Under the pieces are notes generated by a model, which ran no database searches, was not told the DNA's origin, and saw only the letters and a list, made by a program, of their open reading frames with translations. From the sequence record NC_031103.1: 64,000 nucleotides of DNA, one strand, 5' to 3'. Shown one piece after another: positions 54,938-62,940 of the stretch. Every line of letters begins with the position of its first letter. Position 1 is the first letter of the stretch. Position numbers and translations under genes: made by a program. The stretch is from Escherichia phage vB_EcoM-UFV13.

Positions 54938-54940
54938 CAA

Positions 54941-54971
54941 TGGGGACCGAAAGGTCCCCATATTTTTATTT
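54941..54971. terminator. Bidirectional terminator between gene 54 and the convergent minus-strand ORF
   Basis: TGGGGACC-GAAA-GGTCCCCA hairpin followed by tatttttattt. Confidence 0.65.
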
Positions 54972-55256
54972 ACGGAATGAAATAAAAGCAGCAACTGAAG
55001 CAACTAAACTGTCTTCAATATAAACTTCAATTTTTACCGGAGCTTCTGACTCAAATTTACCTGTTACTACACCTTGAAAAATACTTTCAGTCTGTTCTGG
55101 CTTTGAAAAATTTTCAGAAGGAAAAATTCCGAACTTTTTATCCGTTCCAAAAATTTTGATAAATTCATCGTAAACTGCTTCATTAAAAGCATTATCAGCA
55201 GGAATAACGCCTTCAACTACAAGTTCTTGACCTAAAAAGCGCAAAGAAGATTTCAT
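54966..55256 (-). CDS. Hypothetical protein
   Basis: 96 aa ORF downstream of the alt paralogue. Confidence 0.55.
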   Translation of the reverse strand: MKSSLRFLGQELVVEGVIPADNAFNEAVYDEFIKIFGTDKKFGIFPSENFSKPEQTESIFQGVVTGKFESEAPVKIEVYIEDSLVASVAAFISFRK

Positions 55257-55316: not shown

Positions 55317-57374
55317 CTACATTTTGAACTTTTTAGACATTCCGTTGATGTTAACCAAAGAAGCTAAGATTTGAGAAACTTCGTTTTCCTCTTCTTTTGA
55401 TTCTTCTACAAGGAATTGATTAAATCCAGTCATTGGACGAACTTCACCAGTTTCCATCAGATGGTCGCCATCATATACTGATTCTTCTAATTGTTCAGAA
55501 GGAGGAACGATTGTACCTTCGATTAGATACTTGTTATAAGCAGTTTCTTTCATAAAGTAAGTACTTACTTTATTAATCTTCAGTAAAATTCCACGCGGTA
55601 GAATAACTTCAGCTTCTGATGGAAATCCTGATAAATGACCTGGAACGATAACTTTGATTCGCTCAGCTCCTTTAATTACCATACCCACGCTAGTTTCAGC
55701 ATCTTCATTAGCATATGTAGAATGACTACCCATATGCATTAAATCTTCGGCATCAACGGAACCTTCTCCTTCACCAGAAAATACTGCGCCGGAATCATCT
55801 AGAGCCATATAGTTTTTACCATGCTCACCGAAGATATTTGGTTTAAGCGATGTGGATACGAAGTTCTTGAAATAGAACATTTTATTTTCAATGTTATGAC
55901 GCAAAGTTTTAAAGGTAACTTCTTGTCCACGGTAAAGTGTAGTTCCTGGAGGAAGAACTGATCCTTTGGCAAAGGCAGAATCCAACGTCTCGATGTGCTT
56001 AATAGCTCGTTCCATGTATTCTTCACGGGTAGAATCTGGTTTACCCAAAAGGAACGAGTTCATTTCAACATATGAATCTGCACAATAATCTTCAATTACA
56101 TCAGATTCAGCTTGGGTTAGTCCTTTTGGAGTTACTTCGGTGCTTGCGTATTCATATGCCTGAGCAGCAGATTCATTAATCAATTTATAAATGCCATTCA
56201 TTACAAATTGAATAATAGCTGTCTTTTCATCTGGTGTAGCTTTAGAACCTTTAACTAAATCATTGATAATTTTCTTAATAACATCAAAGCTATTAGAAAT
56301 ATTAATGTCAGCAAGATCACTTAAAATTTTATCAGTTTTATAATCAAAGAATTCTTTATTCTTTAAATATTCTTGAGAACCTTGATATGTTATATCGCTC
56401 TGCAGCTTGATAGATGGATCGCGTAAACGTGCATGGGCCAATGCAATATGATTTCGGAAGCTTTCTAGTTCATAATCGTTAGATTTAAAACGAGAAGCAC
56501 TTCTCATACCACCGATAGCTCCTTTGCTGAAGTTTGAACCAATCTGAATAACGCCAGAGTTCATTGGTCCTTCTGCTTTATATACCGGAACCTTAGATTC
56601 AAACTCTTGATATTTCTTAGCAGCGAAGCTATCACCCTGAAGTGAAGCGTCAACAGTAGAATATTGAGCTTGTGCTGCTAATCGACGACTAATTTTAGTT
56701 TTCTGAATAACAGCTTGGTCAGTACGTTTATCATTTTCTAAAGCAATAGAAGCAGCAACAGCGACAGCTTTAGGAACAGCATTACCTGTTTTAACGTCTA
56801 CATAAACATCACCAACCTTTGATTCAACTTTTGTGAATAACTCAGTTGAAATAGGAGGTACACCTGGAATGTCTTCTAAATTGGCATTTTTACGGTAAAC
56901 CATAATATATGCATATTTCTTATCATAGTCCCAGATTTCCTTTAAGAGAACATATCGACCTGCTCCTTTAGTACGTACTAAACGGTCAGCAATAACTTGC
57001 ATTTGACGAGCAGCGCCATTTGTTTTACTTTTTAGTACGCGGAATAGGCATGCATCAATTTTATACTGCTTCATTGTTTGAAGAGCAGTATCAAAAACAG
57101 CATTAATGACACCAATTGGATTTCCACCCAAGTTTCTAAGCTTAACCAGCGATAATTTCTCGTTGACACCTATCATTACGATATGCATCATTTTATCGCC
57201 TGGCTTAACGTTTTTATTTGTATCACCGCCAGAGGTGTATGTACAAAATCTAAATCCAGGAAGCACACTTTCTTCACCGGCTTGAATAGCAAAAATTTGA
57301 GGTATTTTATGCTTAGGATTTAAGTTAACAACCGGCGCCGAAGCGCCGTCAAATAATTCTGTAATAAGTTCCAT
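55317..57374 (-). CDS. Alt-family ADP-ribosyltransferase paralogue (second copy)
   Basis: 685 aa; N-terminus MELITELFDGASAPVVNLNPK parallels the adjacent gene; ART motifs LYRG, FVSTS, EAEVILPRG. Confidence 0.85.
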   Translation of the reverse strand: MELITELFDGASAPVVNLNPKHKIPQIFAIQAGEESVLPGFRFCTYTSGGDTNKNVKPGDKMMHIVMIGVNEKLSLVKLRNLGGNPIGVINAVFDTALQTMKQYKIDACLFRVLKSKTNGAARQMQVIADRLVRTKGAGRYVLLKEIWDYDKKYAYIMVYRKNANLEDIPGVPPISTELFTKVESKVGDVYVDVKTGNAVPKAVAVAASIALENDKRTDQAVIQKTKISRRLAAQAQYSTVDASLQGDSFAAKKYQEFESKVPVYKAEGPMNSGVIQIGSNFSKGAIGGMRSASRFKSNDYELESFRNHIALAHARLRDPSIKLQSDITYQGSQEYLKNKEFFDYKTDKILSDLADINISNSFDVIKKIINDLVKGSKATPDEKTAIIQFVMNGIYKLINESAAQAYEYASTEVTPKGLTQAESDVIEDYCADSYVEMNSFLLGKPDSTREEYMERAIKHIETLDSAFAKGSVLPPGTTLYRGQEVTFKTLRHNIENKMFYFKNFVSTSLKPNIFGEHGKNYMALDDSGAVFSGEGEGSVDAEDLMHMGSHSTYANEDAETSVGMVIKGAERIKVIVPGHLSGFPSEAEVILPRGILLKINKVSTYFMKETAYNKYLIEGTIVPPSEQLEESVYDGDHLMETGEVRPMTGFNQFLVEESKEEENEVSQILASLVNINGMSKKFKM

Positions 57375-57377
57375 GAT

Positions 57378-59474
57378 TTATCCTTGAACGAACTTGTAAG
57401 GCATGTTTGTAATATCTATGCAAGACGCAATAATTCCAAGAGATGATTCTACTTTCTGTTTAACATTTGATGAAACAAATGATGCAAAGTCAACTCTGTC
57501 TTCTACTTCAATATCACCTGTCATTGCAACTACTTCACCGGTTTCCATTAAATGGTCTCCGTCATAGATTACCGATTCGGTGAGCTCTTCCGTAGTCATA
57601 ACTTCAGCTTGAATGAGTTTTGTATTATTAGATGTTGTTCCGTCATTATTAGAAGCATCAGTTATTTTATTAACTTTGACCATCAATCCGCGCGGTAGAA
57701 TAACTTCAGCTTCTGTTGCTATTCCGAGACTTCCTGGATATACAACATTAACTTTATGAGCTCCATCAATTGCCCATCCTATTTGAACTTTAACGTATTC
57801 AGGATTTTCTTTATACGCTCTTATTTCGTTTGGATTAATAGTTATTCCTTCTTCATTTTTATCAACTGTTAATTCATTGCGAGCTTCTGGTTCTAAAAGA
57901 CCAATACCAGCATGTGTAATTCCAAAACGTCCAAAAATGATAGGAGTTAAAGAAGTAGATACAAAATTTCTGAAATAGAACACTTTATTTTTAACTAGTG
58001 CTTCGTATATAGGAGCAGTCATACTTTGAGCACGATAAACTGTAATGCCTTCCGGTATGCGGTCACCATTTTCAAAAGCTGAATCTAAATTATTTATAGC
58101 AGATTCAATTTCTTTTTCACTCATTACATCATATCGTTCTGGATTGTAACGACCTAAAAGAAGATTATTAATGTCTGTATATCCTGAACCACAATATTCT
58201 CTAATACCTCGCTTTTGTGATGGAGTATATTTAGAACCATCACGGGCGATAGTAATATCAATCATTGGACCAGCGCCAATTCCGGAAAAGCTATAAATCA
58301 TTCGTTTGAGGAATTTAGTTTTTGCCGCATTCCAGGCATTTTTAGTTATTTCTCCCCAGACTTCATCTGACTGCCCTTTACGAGTTTTATTATGTTTATC
58401 AAGCCAATTATCTTTGTATTCTTCAAAGAATTTATTAACAGCTGCTGCGTATTTCTCTAAACATTTTATTGAAGTAGTTGGTTCATTTTTGATTGCGTTA
58501 AAAATTACATCTTTAATTTTTTCTGAAACTTCATCAACCTCACTTTTTGAAAAGAATTTATAGTCATAGTGAAGTTCATTCGCAGTTCCTTCGGCAATAA
58601 TTTTTGCTGCCTTAGTTTTAGAAGCTAATGAATTAATTCCAAGCTTCATTTCTTCTGCTTCGGGAATTAAAGGAGCGGTAGCAGGTTTATTGAAATTAGC
58701 TGCGGTAGATTCATACTTCTGGAATAATTCACTTTCAAATCTAGAAGATTCCAATGATTGACTTTGCGCAATTGCTCTACGGGAAATTTTAACTTTAACG
58801 ATTACAGCTTGGTCAGAACGCTTATCATTTTCTTGCGCAATAGATGCTGCAATTGCCTCATTTTTAGTTACTTGGGCTCCAGTATCTTTATTGATATAAA
58901 CATCACCGACCTTCGATTCAACTTTAGTAAAGAGCTCGGTACTAATTTCCGGAACTCCTGGAATGTCTTCTAGCGATACATTTTTGCGATGTATAAGAAT
59001 ATATGCATACTTTTTATCGTAATCCCAGAGTTCCTTAAGAAGGACGTATCTGCCACCTGAACGACTACGGATAAGTCTATCAGCAATAACTTGAATTTGT
59101 CGAGCTTGACCAGCAGTTTTAGACTTAAGAATACGAAGCATACAAGCATCAATTTTATATTGACGCATAGTTTGCATTGCAACAGTAAAAACTGAATTGA
59201 TATAATTAATTGGGCTTGGACCAAGACCTTTTAATTTAGCAATTGAACCTTTAGCAGTTAATGTAAAAGGAACAATATGCATCATTTTATCGCCCATCTT
59301 TAAATCGCGATTAGTATCACCTCCAGATGTATAGGTACATAAACGAAAGCCTGGTTGTTCAATTGCATCATCAACATGAACTGAAAAAATTTGTGGTATT
59401 TTCTTCTTTGGATTTAAGTTTGTAATCGGAAGAGTAGTATCTTCGTCAAATAATTCTGTAATAAGTTCCATCAT
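57378..59474 (-). CDS. alt: Alt ADP-ribosyltransferase (capsid-packaged, injected)
   Basis: 698 aa; ART motifs VYRA, FVSTS, TEAEVILPRG; N-terminus MMELITELFDEDTTLPITNLNPKKKIPQIF. Confidence 0.85.
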   Translation of the reverse strand: MMELITELFDEDTTLPITNLNPKKKIPQIFSVHVDDAIEQPGFRLCTYTSGGDTNRDLKMGDKMMHIVPFTLTAKGSIAKLKGLGPSPINYINSVFTVAMQTMRQYKIDACMLRILKSKTAGQARQIQVIADRLIRSRSGGRYVLLKELWDYDKKYAYILIHRKNVSLEDIPGVPEISTELFTKVESKVGDVYINKDTGAQVTKNEAIAASIAQENDKRSDQAVIVKVKISRRAIAQSQSLESSRFESELFQKYESTAANFNKPATAPLIPEAEEMKLGINSLASKTKAAKIIAEGTANELHYDYKFFSKSEVDEVSEKIKDVIFNAIKNEPTTSIKCLEKYAAAVNKFFEEYKDNWLDKHNKTRKGQSDEVWGEITKNAWNAAKTKFLKRMIYSFSGIGAGPMIDITIARDGSKYTPSQKRGIREYCGSGYTDINNLLLGRYNPERYDVMSEKEIESAINNLDSAFENGDRIPEGITVYRAQSMTAPIYEALVKNKVFYFRNFVSTSLTPIIFGRFGITHAGIGLLEPEARNELTVDKNEEGITINPNEIRAYKENPEYVKVQIGWAIDGAHKVNVVYPGSLGIATEAEVILPRGLMVKVNKITDASNNDGTTSNNTKLIQAEVMTTEELTESVIYDGDHLMETGEVVAMTGDIEVEDRVDFASFVSSNVKQKVESSLGIIASCIDITNMPYKFVQG

Positions 59475-59507
59475 AGCCTCTCTAGTGTTTATTCTATTTA
59501 TAAAATT

Positions 59508-59525
59508 AAAGGCCCGAAGGCCTTT
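59508..59525 (-). terminator. UUCG-tetraloop hairpin upstream of alt
   Basis: plus aaaggcccgaaggccttt. Confidence 0.45.
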
Positions 59526-59712
59526 AGTAATCTAGTGGTAAGAGAGTACGATATATTTCAAACTTTGGTCCTTTTTCATAGGCATCAAATGTTTCTGTAA
59601 ATTTATTATAAGCGTATGCATCTACAAATTCGAGAATGACTTGTGATACAGAAGTAGAAACATCTCCACCTTCTTTTTGAGCAATGACAATTGTTTCTAA
59701 GTAAGCTTTCAT
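59524..59712 (-). CDS. Hypothetical small protein
   Basis: 62 aa ORF between gene 30 and alt. Confidence 0.5.
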   Translation of the reverse strand: MKAYLETIVIAQKEGGDVSTSVSQVILEFVDAYAYNKFTETFDAYEKGPKFEIYRTLLPLDY

Positions 59713-61172
59713 AGACCAGTTACCTCATGAAAATCGCCAAATACATCTTCGAACGTATTAGCTTTAGTTTTATCTTCGCGTAAACGAATCGCAATTGGAA
59801 GAAATAATTTAACGTAATCAGTGCGGCCATCAGATTTTAACCAACCGTTGCATTCGCACTCTAGAATTTTTCCAATATAATAATTTTGGTTTTCCATAAT
59901 GCGAGTACGGTCAAGTTCATGCGATTTTACGCCGGCTTTATCTTTTAAGCCTGAACCAGCATTTACTTTAATTTTTCCACACTCTGACTCAAGAATAAAT
60001 CCACCTGCTTTAGTAGGGTCTTTACGGTGAGGATAAATTCCTACAATTTTTAAATCAACATCAATTACTTCTTTAAATTTATAAAGATTTTTTGAACGAG
60101 CATTTTCCCATAATCCATCGATATTTTTGAGAATAATACCTTCAAGACCTTGGTCAATATACTTTTTATAAATTACCTTAGCTTCATCTAGGTTATTTAC
60201 TACCTGGTTTTCAATTAAAATTACTTTATCATAACCTGATGTCATTTGTTCTAGTTTAGAAAAACGTACATCATATTTCAAACGAAATGCAGGAAGACCG
60301 TATATTTCTACCAACGGGACATAATCCCAGACCTGAAACTTCATGCATTGAGCTTCTTTTTCAGAAATGGTTCCCTTTAAAGATTTATTAGCGATTCCAT
60401 TAGAAGCAGTACGTGATTCAGCTACTTCGGCGAATTCTTTAGCTTTACTAATTTCAGGATAAGCATCAAAAAGAAAATCTAGGCCTTCTGGCTCCTTTTT
60501 AACTTGCTCATGGTATACCAATTCGCCATCAATTAACACACCTTCTGGATGAATCTGGCGGGCTTCAGCGGTCATTTTGATTAACTCTTCTTTGAGAAGG
60601 TCTAATCCTAGATATTCATTACCAGCTCGTGATAAAAGACGAACATCATCTAATTCATCACCTCTGACTTCAGCAAAGCACCGAGCCCCATCAGCTTTTA
60701 ACTGGGCAAAGGCTGGAAATTTGATATTCTTATTAATGCCTTTTTCATCATAAGAACTTGCCAGCATTTGAGGTTGTTCAGGAATTAAACCTGGCCAAAC
60801 TTTGTTTGCAATAGATACTGAAGCACCGCATTCAAGGTCTCGCATCATCACCCGACGCAAAACTTCAACATCATCTTTTTTACCGTCAGTAATATATCCA
60901 GTTAATTCCTCAATTGCCGCATTTCCAGTCAATTTCCGAGTAGCTAACGTGAATTCAATGAAGTCGAGCATATCGGTAAGAGTCAACATTCCAAAACTCT
61001 GGGTAGCAATACCCGGTTTAGGCCATTTCTTGATATAATACTGTAACCCACGAGAATAAGTCAGACGATATACTCGTTTAAGCAATTCATTATCTTTATT
61101 CTTTTCAAGAATTGCTTGCTTCTGCTTAGTTGAACCAATAGATGCTATTTCGTTCAGAATTTTAAGAATCAT
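59709..61172 (-). CDS. 30: ATP-dependent DNA ligase
   Basis: 487 aa; adenylation motif I LKADGAR. Confidence 0.9.
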   Translation of the reverse strand: MILKILNEIASIGSTKQKQAILEKNKDNELLKRVYRLTYSRGLQYYIKKWPKPGIATQSFGMLTLTDMLDFIEFTLATRKLTGNAAIEELTGYITDGKKDDVEVLRRVMMRDLECGASVSIANKVWPGLIPEQPQMLASSYDEKGINKNIKFPAFAQLKADGARCFAEVRGDELDDVRLLSRAGNEYLGLDLLKEELIKMTAEARQIHPEGVLIDGELVYHEQVKKEPEGLDFLFDAYPEISKAKEFAEVAESRTASNGIANKSLKGTISEKEAQCMKFQVWDYVPLVEIYGLPAFRLKYDVRFSKLEQMTSGYDKVILIENQVVNNLDEAKVIYKKYIDQGLEGIILKNIDGLWENARSKNLYKFKEVIDVDLKIVGIYPHRKDPTKAGGFILESECGKIKVNAGSGLKDKAGVKSHELDRTRIMENQNYYIGKILECECNGWLKSDGRTDYVKLFLPIAIRLREDKTKANTFEDVFGDFHEVTGL

Positions 61173-61438
61173 TGTTCATCCTTTAGAGTTTGGTTTACAG
61201 CTCTATTATAAATCAATTCATCATTAAGCTCAGTCAAAGACCTGTGGTATGTGGTTCTAACTTTATTTCCTTGCATCCAGTGCTTGACGTAAATGAAACC
61301 TTGCTCTACACATTTTTTAAAAATTCGTTCGTCTTTTTGAGCTCGGAATTCTGGATTGCATCTAAAAAATTGATTTACGTGACCGTAATCACGTGTAGTA
61401 TTACCTTCATTTTCATAAATAGTGTGAACGACAAACAT
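61169..61438 (-). CDS. Hypothetical protein (30.1-like)
   Basis: 89 aa. Confidence 0.55.
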   Translation of the reverse strand: MFVVHTIYENEGNTTRDYGHVNQFFRCNPEFRAQKDERIFKKCVEQGFIYVKHWMQGNKVRTTYHRSLTELNDELIYNRAVNQTLKDEQ

Positions 61439-62277
61439 TAGAATGCTCCTTGGAAAATATTATCACCACTAGTAGGTCTATTATACAAATACTCTATGCC
61501 ACCAGGTTTAATATAGTTCCATGTCTGAAACGGATGTGTCTGATATGGATGATATAGATGATTATAAGGATTAAATCCAGGAGTTCTCCAGGTAGTGTTC
61601 CAAGGAAAAGAATCGTTTTTGATCATCTTCTCAATTACATCTTTTATAACTTTTTCACTATCAAAACTTTCTTTATTTTCCTTCGATGGAAAAAGCTTAT
61701 TCTCTACATCATTCCATGTATAAACTCGCTGTGCAGTTTTTGGAATACTGTCACGCTCTCCTCGAGCCATCCAATAAACAGGAACACTTAATATTTCACT
61801 CGCATGATCGCAGTGGTGAGCGAGATCGTCAATATAACAAATTACGTTATATTTCTCTTTTGCCTTTTTGAACAACTCTTCTTTTGAAGAATCATGACCA
61901 CACATCAATACTTCTGAGAAGGCACCAGGAAAAAGAGCATTCAAATTAAATTGACGATTCAGCAGAGCGTCAATAGAATCACCCAGTGCTGTAACAGCTA
62001 CAAAATTATAATCTTCTTTTAATTTGTTAATTACACACAGGGCATCTTTATATGGCGACAAGTAACGAATAAAATCTGAACGATTGTATTTTTCAATTAG
62101 CTTAACGCCAAGTTCTTCATCACAATTAAAAAGTTTACCAGGAGAAATAAATTTCTCATCCTGGATCATTTTTAAAATATGTTCTAACGGAAGATTATAT
62201 TTCTGAGCAAAATAAGGAAGGCCTGATTGCCAGCTTAAACATACACCATCAATATCAGTCAAAATAGTAGGCTTCAT
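61438..62277 (-). CDS. HAD-superfamily phosphatase-like protein (30.2-like)
   Basis: 279 aa; N-terminal DIDGV motif (HAD motif I). Confidence 0.55.
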   Translation of the reverse strand: MKPTILTDIDGVCLSWQSGLPYFAQKYNLPLEHILKMIQDEKFISPGKLFNCDEELGVKLIEKYNRSDFIRYLSPYKDALCVINKLKEDYNFVAVTALGDSIDALLNRQFNLNALFPGAFSEVLMCGHDSSKEELFKKAKEKYNVICYIDDLAHHCDHASEILSVPVYWMARGERDSIPKTAQRVYTWNDVENKLFPSKENKESFDSEKVIKDVIEKMIKNDSFPWNTTWRTPGFNPYNHLYHPYQTHPFQTWNYIKPGGIEYLYNRPTSGDNIFQGAF

Positions 62278-62732
62278 AGAGAGTCTCTTAATAGGTTTAA
62301 CACATCAATAAATTCAGCTTCGGTTAGTATTGTATCATCTTTTGTTAGACCACTAGCCATGCTGTGCTTCAAAACTTTTCCTTTCGAGGCTAGTAATGCA
62401 TCACGAAAGCCCTTGTTTTGGATCGCTGCTTCAAAATATGCATTTGTGTATAATTCTTTCCACGCTGGGGAGTATCTTGAAAACGGAACTCCCAGCCAGA
62501 AGAGGGTCCCACGGTCCTGAGCTCTTGCATAAGACCTTCCAGCTTGTTGGGCGGCCAATCCGGAGAGCCTAAATATACGTTTTTGTTGTTCAACATTTTT
62601 CACCTTGCATCCTTGGAGGAATCCTTCAAGACCTCCAAATTGGATACCATCCATAACAAAAGGCCATTGGGCGAAATTACTTAATGCGCATGATGGCCAT
62701 CTAAAATTACTTCTTATCTCTAACTCAGACAT
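62274..62732 (-). CDS. NADAR / YbiA-like domain protein (30.3-like)
   Basis: 152 aa; LSNFAQWPFVMDGIQFGGLEGFLQGCK resembles the YbiA/NADAR signature NF..WP..VDG...E.YFQA.K. Confidence 0.6.
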   Translation of the reverse strand: MSELEIRSNFRWPSCALSNFAQWPFVMDGIQFGGLEGFLQGCKVKNVEQQKRIFRLSGLAAQQAGRSYARAQDRGTLFWLGVPFSRYSPAWKELYTNAYFEAAIQNKGFRDALLASKGKVLKHSMASGLTKDDTILTEAEFIDVLNLLRDSL

Positions 62733-62940
62733 CTTTAATACTTATAATTTCAACATCAGCCCAATGACCATAACTTGGCAGACGGTCTTCAATAGATAAT
62801 CCGCCATCATATTTAAGCATTTTAATTGTCATAATATATGGCTCTAAATGGTCTTCTGTGAGCGGAGAAACGTCAGTCACACGATAAGTAACTTCAACCA
62901 TTTCCGTACCTAATAATTTCTGAATTAATTTCTTAAACAT
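62725..62940 (-). CDS. Hypothetical protein
   Basis: 71 aa. Confidence 0.5.
   Translation of the reverse strand: MFKKLIQKLLGTEMVEVTYRVTDVSPLTEDHLEPYIMTIKMLKYDGGLSIEDRLPSYGHWADVEIISIKDV

Follow-up and report, generated by a model that had tools for sequence, protein, structure and literature searches.

The 7.5-kb segment of Escherichia phage vB_EcoM-UFV13 (NC_031103.1) that carries two alt genes, the ligase gene 30 and genes 30.1 to 30.3 is very probably the conserved T-even alt-30-30.x segment, organized as two independent units and not as a single ADP-ribose module. It was examined within a window consisting of the whole 64,000-nucleotide stretch of DNA analysed, which comes from a T2-like Tequatrovirus (nucleotide identity with T2 and relatives of 96.6-96.9%). 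The genes of the alt-gene 30-30.3 region are real and have been described before, and 391 phage records extend over at least 80% of the stretch. A first-pass annotation had gathered five ORFs of the segment under an NAD- and ADP-ribose-related heading and suggested that they act during infection as a writer/eraser or by-product clean-up module. All five lie on the minus strand, with coordinates unchanged (Table 1), and their clustering on one strand within 7.5 kb is real, but it represents the standard Tequatrovirus synteny, and the linkage of NADAR with Alt or with the HAD gene is not conserved beyond close relatives. The idea of a module finds no support here or in the literature, given the separate late alt unit, the weak co-occurrence of the genes, the neutrality of alt and 30.2 insertions, and the role of the NADAR protein (AdfN) against DarT1. 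The case serves mainly as a correction: where genes are packed as tightly as in T-even phages, closeness says little about common function.

Table 1. Genes and transcription signals of the alt-30.x segment (positions in the window)
Feature	Position	Strand	Basis
alt.-3 (DUF5498), 96 aa, last gene of the late alt unit	54966..55256	-	PF17602, 1.4e-64; 100% identity with T4 alt.-3
Second Alt paralogue "altA", 685 aa	55317..57374	-	PF03496, phrog_802
alt orthologue "altB", 698 aa	57378..59474	-	PF03496, phrog_802
T4-type late promoter TATAAATA	59495..59502	-	Exact match
Intrinsic-terminator-like hairpin AAAGGCC-TTCG-GGCCTTT, then T-run	59507..59526	-	Sequence
alt.1, 62 aa, Pfam "Phage_blade"	59524..59712	-	PF24647, 1.9e-29; 90% identity with T4 alt.1
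Gene 30, ATP-dependent DNA ligase	59709..61172	-	PF01068, 1.2e-32; 99.6% identity with T4 gp30
30.1 (DUF3045), 89 aa	61169..61438	-	PF11243, 2.9e-64; 98.9% identity with T4 30.1
30.2, predicted HAD-superfamily phosphatase, NT5C-like	61438..62277	-	Motifs, AF2 fold
30.3 = adfN, NADAR family, 152 aa	62274..62732	-	PF08010; T4/T2 identity
30.4-like ORF, 71 aa	62725..62940	-	phrog_2042, 3.1e-35; 51.5% identity with T4 30.4

Two transcription units

Genes 30.4 to alt.1 are joined by ATGA or TAATG overlaps (e.g., 4 nt, ATGA, between 30.3 and 30.2), and the stop codon of 30.4 overlaps the start of 30.3 by 8 nt. Directly after the alt.1 stop codon lies a hairpin, followed by the late-promoter motif TATAAATA, which stands 20 nt upstream of the altB ATG and has 24 matches in the window compared with 9.6 expected. 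The hairpin ends the early/middle operon, and the alt genes belong to a late unit of their own. With the terminator hairpin and the late promoter between alt.1 and altB, the transferases and the hydrolase do not share a transcription unit; the NADAR gene is ~2.8 kb from the nearest alt gene, and four other genes lie between them. The early/middle unit would thus run through the translationally coupled genes 30.4-30.3-30.2-30.1-30-alt.1 to the terminator at its end, and would include gp30 as the essential ATP-dependent ligase. gp30 matches the ATP-dependent DNA ligase domain PF01068 and uses ATP, not NAD, and it was therefore misplaced under an NAD-related heading; the gene is essential in a T4 transposon screen. 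A literature search for alt.1 returned nothing relevant.

The two Alt ADP-ribosyltransferases recognized in the first-pass annotation are present. Both altA and altB match PF03496 (ADPrib_exo_Tox; 5.8e-20 and 2.2e-37, respectively) and the Alt-like family phrog_802 (1.9e-256 and 1.9e-273), and the R / S-T-S / E-x-E catalytic triad is complete in each. In a three-way alignment of altA, altB and T4 Alt, R482, S507-T508-S509 and E587/E589 are invariant, and the Tevenvirinae N-terminal domain (residues 1-240) is conserved; altA retains its MELITE N-terminus and the motifs YR, STS and EAE. Like the T4 Alt and the T2 pair (ARTC-type R-S-E), altA and altB share the MELITE N-terminus, the ~240-aa N-terminal domain and R/STS/ExE, and as judged from these features both are intact Alt ADP-ribosyltransferases. 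Identity of altB is 71.9% with T4 Alt and 99% with T2 Alt, while that of altA is 45% with T4 Alt, 99.1% with T2 gp211 and 88-96% with T4 alt.-1/alt.-2. The altA gene is the intact form of a second Alt paralogue that in T4 has been reduced to the fragments alt.-1 and alt.-2. Alt is a mono-ADP-ribosyltransferase that modifies arginine, and the T4 record places it in the capsid, from which it enters together with the DNA. The late unit (late promoter, altB, altA and alt.-3) would accordingly encode two Alt-type arginine mono-ADP-ribosyltransferases that are made late, packaged in the capsid and injected with the DNA at the next infection, where they may modify host proteins (e.g., RNA polymerase and MazF) and aid evasion of Mokosh.

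A predicted nucleotide-type phosphatase linked to the ligase

The remaining gap in the segment is gp30.2, a conserved, dispensable and predicted NT5C-like HAD phosphatase that travels with the ligase across T4-like phages; a literature search for it found no publication (one numeric false positive). The N-terminus reads MKPTILTDIDGV, and all four HAD motifs are present, with D8, D10, G11 and K132 invariant and T96, D150 and D151 at least 90% conserved among 30 homologues. The earlier description of this ORF as HAD-like is upheld by the motifs and the AF2 fold but not by a plain profile search, since the Pfam/NCBIfam scan gave no significant HAD match, no Pfam match at E<0.1, and only E=0.19 for PF25109 (HAD_PNKP). 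Among the homologues, 8 of 30 match PF00702 (Hydrolase; best 3.5e-4) and 6 of 30 match PF06941 (NT5C; best 1.2e-4). The family profile found 2jao in the PDB (E=0.028), whereas single-sequence phmmer against the same database reached only E=1. The AF2 model has a pLDDT of 83 overall and above 90 over residues 1-190, and Foldseek against the PDB returned 119 matches at E<=1e-3, of which the best 50 of 119 are all HAD-fold; 5'(3')-deoxyribonucleotidases (cdN/mdN) come out on top, with 2jao, 3bwv and 2i7d as the best matches. An hhalign comparison of the 30.2 family with the 30.3 family was negative, as expected.

Two features of the model bear on the likely substrate. A four-helix C1 cap (residues 16-65) is inserted between strand 1 and the helix preceding strand 2, and W16 places an aromatic residue in alignment with the cdN Phe that stacks on the base in the cdN/mdN structures. 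The protein ends in a largely disordered tail of ~80 aa (pLDDT <50 over residues 229-279) that closes with a conserved peptide, G-IEYL-x-x-[QR]-P-T; as a candidate clamp-binding motif it bears only a weak resemblance to polymerase C-termini, and that idea was set aside. Both the HAD core (DxDGV/T/K/DD) and the four-helix cap are shared with cdN/mdN (NT5C, PF06941) and with the PBS1 dTMP phosphatase Dtm (PMC12697855), but identity is only 14-19%, no significant Pfam NT5C match is obtained, and the tail is an addition of gp30.2. T-even DNA chemistry has no obvious need for a dNMP phosphatase.

The genomic company of gene 30.2 was surveyed in IMG/VR with 78 gp30.2-anchored and 79 NADAR-anchored loci, counting neighbours within 8 kb. 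Ligase lies within this distance in 73 of the 78 gp30.2-anchored loci, 60 of them within 300 bp on the same strand, and distant gp30.2 homologues adjoin cd, gene 31, UvsX, gp59, PhoH and a PD-(D/E)XK nuclease. gp30.2 is most likely a small-molecule phosphatase linked to ligase and replication genes, with both the phosphatase activity and the nucleotide type of the substrate being predictions. It would be a Mg-dependent, capped, NT5C-like HAD phosphomonoesterase whose most probable substrate is a (deoxy)nucleoside monophosphate or another small phospho-metabolite of that kind, and it would serve in an ancillary role to the genes for nucleotide and DNA metabolism alongside which it travels. A more specific version of this proposal, put forward tentatively and on balance doubtful, is that a nucleotide-monophosphate (or nucleotide-like signal) phosphatase is tethered through its C-terminal peptide and disordered linker to a replication, ligase or host partner, where it either edits the dNMPs that feed T-even DNA synthesis or destroys a nucleotide-derived immune signal. 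If true, gp30.2 would add an accessory or anti-defence enzyme to those known from T4-like phages. On any reading, identification of its substrate would close a minor gap in what is known of T4 nucleotide metabolism or of anti-defence.

Alternatively, gp30.2 could act on DNA ends (e.g., by removing 3'-phosphates, as the HAD domain of Pnkp does), readying nicks for the neighbouring ligase. This appears quite unlikely, even though 30.2 is found directly upstream of the ligase in nearly all loci, the very weak PF25109 match points towards Pnkp, phage polynucleotide kinase/phosphatases are among the BFVD structural neighbours, and the conserved C-terminal peptide on its flexible tether could dock a replication or repair partner. 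HAD C1 caps enclose small substrates, and HAD enzymes that act on macromolecules are usually capless, whereas the gp30.2 model carries four cap helices just behind motif I. Nucleotidases, not Pnkp, give the best structural matches, end healing in T4 is already served by PseT, and on K-12 gene 30.2 is dispensable while the ligase is essential.

AdfN and the DarTG1 defence

The ORF that the first-pass annotation described as NADAR-like belongs to that family, with a match to PF08010 (Phage_30_3) at 3.6e-70 (234.6 bits; cutoff 36) and a NADAR fold by Foldseek; the general NADAR model PF08719 gave no match, and TIGR02464 reached only E=0.065. In the PDB, the family profile found E. coli YbiA (2b3w, E=0.0046), and the AF2 model (pLDDT 94.2) matched at a Foldseek probability of at least 0.99 only 2b3w YbiA (3.2e-5), 8bau PnNADAR and 8bat GlNADAR. 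In a set of 31 sequences, E36 and H123 never vary and K43 is at least 90% conserved; the catalytic Glu and Lys, the clade-specific His in the final strand and the complete C-terminal helix are all present. Unlike the truncated RB69 allele, gp30.3 has the full 152 aa of T4 and T2 AdfN, to which it is 97.4% and 98.7% identical, respectively. It shares their catalytic residues (E36, K43 and H123), their NADAR fold and their place upstream of 30.2; only 2-4 substitutions separate it from these proteins, none of them catalytic. gp30.3 is identified as AdfN and, by analogy with the 97-99% identical T4 and T2 proteins from which the activity is known, would act against DarTG1 as a DNA (guanine-N2) ADP-ribosylglycohydrolase of the NADAR family.

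AdfN of T4 and of T2 is required to counter DarTG1 and suffices to do so, and it strips ADP-ribose from DNA in vitro (PMC11825919), acting specifically on guanine-ADPr and being inactive on thymine-ADPr (PMC11125620). The link drawn in the first-pass annotation between NADARs and reversal of ADP-ribosylation is borne out, as these proteins are genuine de-ADP-ribosylases (PMC11543638). The AdfN target is guanine ADP-ribose placed on DNA by the host toxin DarT1, and Alt-modified proteins are no known substrate (PMC11825919, PMC11125620, PMC11543638); no assay of AdfN on Arg-ADP-ribosylated proteins was found in the NADAR literature searched. In the phage studied here, gp30.3 would hydrolyse the ADP-ribose set on phage-DNA guanine by host DarT1. 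That AdfN also erases guanine ADP-ribosylation made by the second Alt paralogue is much less likely than the tethered phosphatase suggested above for gp30.2. The true writer-eraser pair DarT1-NADAR of DarTG1 likewise has an ART gene near a NADAR gene, but there the two genes share an operon and their products work on a single bond, guanine-ADPr in DNA, whereas the phage ART is Arg-specific, late and packaged, and is parted by a terminator and a promoter from a phage NADAR that is an orphan antitoxin mimic directed against host DarT1.

In published T4 HIDEN-SEQ data under DarTG1, gene 30.3 is depleted (log2FC -7.25, padj 0), while 30.2 (log2FC -0.12, p=0.61, 71 TA sites) and alt (log2FC -0.01, p=0.97) are neutral; these transposon data refer to T4, which has no second Alt paralogue. 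On plain K-12, the T4 transposon data class 30.1, 30.2 and 30.3 as non-essential, and loss of adfN leaves T2 and T4 able to plaque on hosts without DarTG1 (PMC11825919). The AdfN study reports that AdfN(T4) needs a further, T-even-specific factor for full activity (PMC11825919). The second significant gene under DarTG1 is 30.4 (padj 0.014), but as a candidate for this factor it was rejected: its depletion is more likely polar because of the 8-nt overlap with the 30.3 start, and because the T2 reference copy of 30.4 is frameshifted although T2 is DarTG1-resistant. gp30.2 as the missing potentiator was likewise rejected, on the HIDEN-SEQ values for 30.2.

Linkage of NADAR, 30.2 and alt in viral loci

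Within 8 kb, the gp30.2-anchored loci contain NADAR in 36 of 78 cases and Alt in 54 of 78, while the NADAR-anchored loci contain Alt in 14 of 79, a 30.2 homologue in 18 of 79 and ligase in 19 of 79. ART-hydrolase co-occurrence is thus not conserved across lineages, and neither the NADAR-Alt nor the NADAR-HAD linkage extends beyond close relatives. Where NADAR is found near 30.2, it is always upstream on the same strand, directly adjoining it in 22 of 78 loci and lying at most 1.3 kb away in 36 of 78, and the adjacency spans several genera (phages of Escherichia and Acinetobacter, and KVP40-like phages of ~220-235 kb). Judged by this synteny, a weak functional tie between NADAR and 30.2 is conceivable. 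Elsewhere the genes are apart: Shewanella phage Thanatos-1 has 30.2-ligase with no NADAR or Alt nearby, and in several T4-like genomes NADAR is ~55-60 kb away from 30.2-ligase. The neighbours of one such relocated NADAR (locus L111) are only small hypothetical ORFs and were uninformative.

These counts, together with the 4-nt ATGA overlap between 30.3 and 30.2 and the T-even factor reported in the AdfN study (PMC11825919), give some appeal to a two-gene anti-DarT unit in which gp30.2 either is that factor or processes the ADP-ribose released by AdfN. Such a unit is highly improbable and largely refuted by the genetics, as 30.2 insertions go undepleted under DarTG1 while 30.3 insertions are lost; moreover, the reciprocal count is low (18 of 79), 30.2 is tied far more tightly to the ligase, and 30.2 homologues occur in phages without a nearby NADAR.

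Expression of NADARs together with ARTs in T4-like phages had already been remarked on in a comparative survey (PMC9503650), so the association itself is not new. That association, the common strand within 7.5 kb and the genuine de-ADP-ribosylase activity of NADARs (PMC11543638) are what speak for one regulatory or clean-up module in which ADP-ribose is written by the Alts and removed by NADAR while the HAD phosphatase clears up the products, yet there is very little chance that this is correct, given that Alt is late and packaged and its gene follows a terminator and a late promoter of its own, that the known NADAR chemistry is on DNA guanine-N2 and that of Alt on arginine, that the NADAR-Alt pairing is so infrequent, that insertions in alt or 30.2 are neutral under DarTG1, as are those in 30.3 when it is absent, that adfN deletion mutants plaque on hosts lacking DarTG1, and that T4 has retained AdfN despite the loss of its second Alt. 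The one protein of the block directly linked to ADP-ribose removal has a published role in shielding phage DNA from DarT1, not in undoing Alt marks. In 13 of the gp30.2-anchored loci, Alt is encoded on the opposite strand, with a tail-gene context where this was checked (L003).

Gene content and transcription units of the alt-30-30.3 region

The alt-30-30.x region is already known: Escherichia phage T2 and its close relatives share 96.6-96.9% nucleotide identity over 7.6 kb around the alt-30-30.3 block, and at least 80% of this stretch is spanned by 391 phage records in a nucleotide comparison. Every gene from alt.-3 through 30.4 is encoded on the minus strand, and the names alt.-3, alt, alt.1, 30, 30.1, 30.2, 30.3 and 30.4 are taken from the annotated T4 and T2 records. 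A first-pass annotation had listed two ADP-ribosyltransferases (ARTs), a DNA ligase, a HAD-like phosphatase and a NADAR-like protein here, and had proposed that they act together as a writer/eraser or clean-up module for ADP-ribose. Each of these elements is present at the locus, and for a reading by eye the domains had been assigned well. The module itself is not supported, given the separate transcription units, the unstable linkage of the NADAR gene with alt or 30.2, and the neutrality of alt and 30.2 under the host defence DarTG1.

Features of the alt-30-30.4 region and its flank
Feature	Coordinates	Strand	Remarks
Hairpin ATGGGGACC-GAAA-GGTCCCCAT	54940-54961		perfect 9-bp stem; between convergent 54 (+) and alt.-3 (-)
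altA	55317-57374	minus	second Alt paralogue, downstream
altB (alt)	57378-59474	minus	alt orthologue, upstream
Late-promoter box TATAAATA	59502-59495	minus	T4 type; 20 nt ahead of alt (altB) start codon
Hairpin + T-run	59526-59507	minus	GC-rich; directly after alt.1 stop codon
alt.1	59524-59712	minus	62 aa
30	59709-61172	minus	DNA ligase
30.2	61438-62277	minus	HAD-like protein gp30.2
C-terminal ~80 aa of gp30.2	61438-61680	minus	conserved peptide GIEYLYNRPTS at residues 259-269
30.3	62274-62732	minus	NADAR protein gp30.3 (AdfN)
Internal ORF	62390-62596	minus	68 aa; within 30.3, other frame; the annotated 30.3' of T4 and T2; no sign found of expression or of conservation as a protein
30.4-like ORF	62725-62940	minus	71 aa, intact; 51.5% identity with T4 30.4

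The hairpin, the late promoter and the gene overlaps argue for two units, an early/middle operon ending at a terminator and a late alt unit. Upstream of the boundary, ATGA or TAATG overlaps join 30.4 through alt.1. The late-promoter sequence is enriched throughout the window (24 matches versus 9.6 expected). The hairpin adjoins the late box so closely that the T-run of the terminator overlaps it, making a compact early/late boundary. The hairpin between 54 and alt.-3 scores as a terminator on either strand.

Within the operon, gene 30 encodes a ligase with 99.6% identity to T4 gp30, as the first-pass annotation had recognized, but its placement under an NAD-related heading was wrong because the match to PF01068 identifies the enzyme as ATP-dependent. 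The alt.1 product matches PF24647 (1.9e-29), a recent Pfam entry named 'Phage blade protein'; a literature search found no publication explaining this name or the function of alt.1.

Alt paralogues

Both proposed ART genes were confirmed, with full-length matches to PF03496 and the Alt PHROG. A three-way alignment of altA, altB and T4 Alt shows the invariant Arg, S-T-S and E-x-E in all three, as well as a conserved N-terminal domain of ~240 residues starting MELITE. The upstream paralogue, altB, is the alt orthologue (72% identity with T4 Alt and 99% with T2 Alt), and the downstream altA has 45% identity with T4 Alt. T4 carries a decayed copy of altA, since altA is intact here and in T2, with its catalytic triad kept, and all that is left of it in T4 is a pair of N-terminal fragments, alt.-1 and alt.-2, with 88-96% identity to it. 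The middle of altA (residues ~240-600) is very different from the corresponding part of Alt. A late alt unit agrees with the known biology of Alt, which is packaged in the capsid and injected (T4 record note; PMC9503650). The Alt enzymes are ARTs of host takeover, made late and packaged.

AdfN and resistance to DarTG1

The NADAR assignment of gp30.3 held up well, with a match to PF08010 at 3.6e-70, a match of the family profile to YbiA, and structural matches of the model (pLDDT 94) only to the three solved NADAR structures. The protein is full length, has 97.4% identity with T4 gp30.3 and 98.7% with its T2 counterpart, and retains E36, K43 and H123. Its function is settled by the literature on the T4 and T2 proteins, which were renamed AdfN and are necessary and sufficient for resistance to the toxin-antitoxin defence DarTG1; in vitro, AdfN strips ADP-ribose off DNA modified by the toxin DarT1, and the substitutions E36A and K43A impair it (PMC11825919). 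In an independent study, the phage protein hydrolysed ADP-ribose linked to guanine in DNA but not that linked to thymine (PMC11125620), and the phage NADAR clade is marked by a histidine replacing the catalytic Glu/Asp of other NADARs (PMC11543638).

Transposon sequencing of T4 on E. coli K-12 (bioRxiv 10.1101/2025.11.20.689424) found 30.1, 30.2 and 30.3 to be non-essential and gene 30 essential. In the DarTG1 table of that study only two genes are significant, 30.3 (log2FC -7.25, padj 0) and 30.4 (-1.79, padj 0.014). The effects on 30.2 (-0.12, p=0.61), alt (-0.01, p=0.97) and 30.1 (-0.01, not significant) are negligible. The neutrality of 30.2 and alt indicates that AdfN works without gp30.2 and without Alt, and loss of AdfN is costless without DarTG1, which would not be predicted of a needed eraser of Alt marks. 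The depletion of 30.4 is probably a polar effect, since there is an 8-nt overlap between its stop codon and the start of 30.3, and T2 relies on AdfN although 30.4 carries a frameshift in the T2 reference. AdfN is an orphan antitoxin mimic directed at a host DNA-modifying toxin.

Conservation of the gene neighborhood

Per-gene profiles were run against the six-frame ORFs of two sets of IMG/VR loci, 78 with a gp30.2 homologue as the anchor and 79 with a NADAR of the gp30.3 family. Within 8 kb of 30.2, the ligase was found in 73 of the 78 loci (in 60 of them within 300 bp downstream on the same strand), a NADAR in 36 (22 adjacent) and Alt in 54 (13 on the opposite strand). From the NADAR anchor, the same distance included the ligase in 19 loci, 30.2 in 18 and Alt in 14. 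Individual genomes illustrate these patterns (e.g., Shewanella phage Thanatos-1 has 30.2-ligase without NADAR or Alt nearby, and in an Acinetobacter phage 30.3-30.2-ligase and Alt occupy opposite strands, Alt lying with the tail genes). More distant gp30.2 homologues neighbor cd, gene 31, UvsX, gp59, PhoH and a PD-(D/E)XK nuclease. The stable pairing is that of 30.2 with the ligase and the replication set, not 30.2 with NADAR or NADAR with Alt.

In several T4-like genomes (~160-175 kb), 30.2-ligase and the NADAR gene are 55-60 kb apart, the latter amid small hypothetical early genes; within the T4 superfamily the NADAR gene has thus moved or been separately acquired. These relocated family members have ~40-44% identity (loci L111, L103, L119, L120, L122, L134 and L151 compared with L024, L069, L049, L082, L040, L027 and L039).

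The HAD protein gp30.2

Although a plain Pfam or NCBIfam scan of gp30.2 gave nothing significant, the proposed HAD-phosphatase assignment is right, and gp30.2 is placed firmly in the superfamily by its motifs, homologue and profile matches, model fold and structural neighbors. Four HAD motifs (D8-x-D10-G11-V, T96, K132 and D150-D151) are kept across 30 aligned homologues with identities as low as 34%, some of which weakly match Pfam Hydrolase or NT5C, and the family profile matches mouse cytosolic 5'(3')-deoxyribonucleotidase in the PDB (E=0.028). Residues 1-190 of the AlphaFold model are confident and show a Rossmannoid core, in which four helices inserted behind motif I make up a cap. A Foldseek search of the PDB returned 119 significant matches, the best 50 of which are all HAD-fold entries, headed by the deoxyribonucleotidases cdN/mdN and a bacterial deoxyribonucleotidase-like protein. 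Phage 5'-nucleotidase is the annotation of many structural neighbors from the BFVD viral library. W16 aligns with the Phe of cdN that stacks on the base in the cdN/mdN structures. The protein is most likely a capped, nucleotidase-like small-molecule phosphatase with a presumptive nucleotide-type substrate; PBS1 Dtm, a phage enzyme of the same fold, is a proven dTMP phosphatase (PMC12697855). The protein is a putative NT5C-like HAD phosphatase belonging with DNA and nucleotide metabolism genes.

Modest novelty in the region lies with gp30.2 alone, its conserved C-terminal peptide included, which sits on a disordered tether (residues 229-279 are disordered in the AlphaFold model). The ~200-aa homologues from RB69-like, Acinetobacter and Shewanella phages lack the whole tail, and the long homologues have in common, after a variable, low-confidence linker, the peptide G-[IT]-E-Y-[LWY]-x-x-[QR]-P-T, which looks like a docking motif for a partner.
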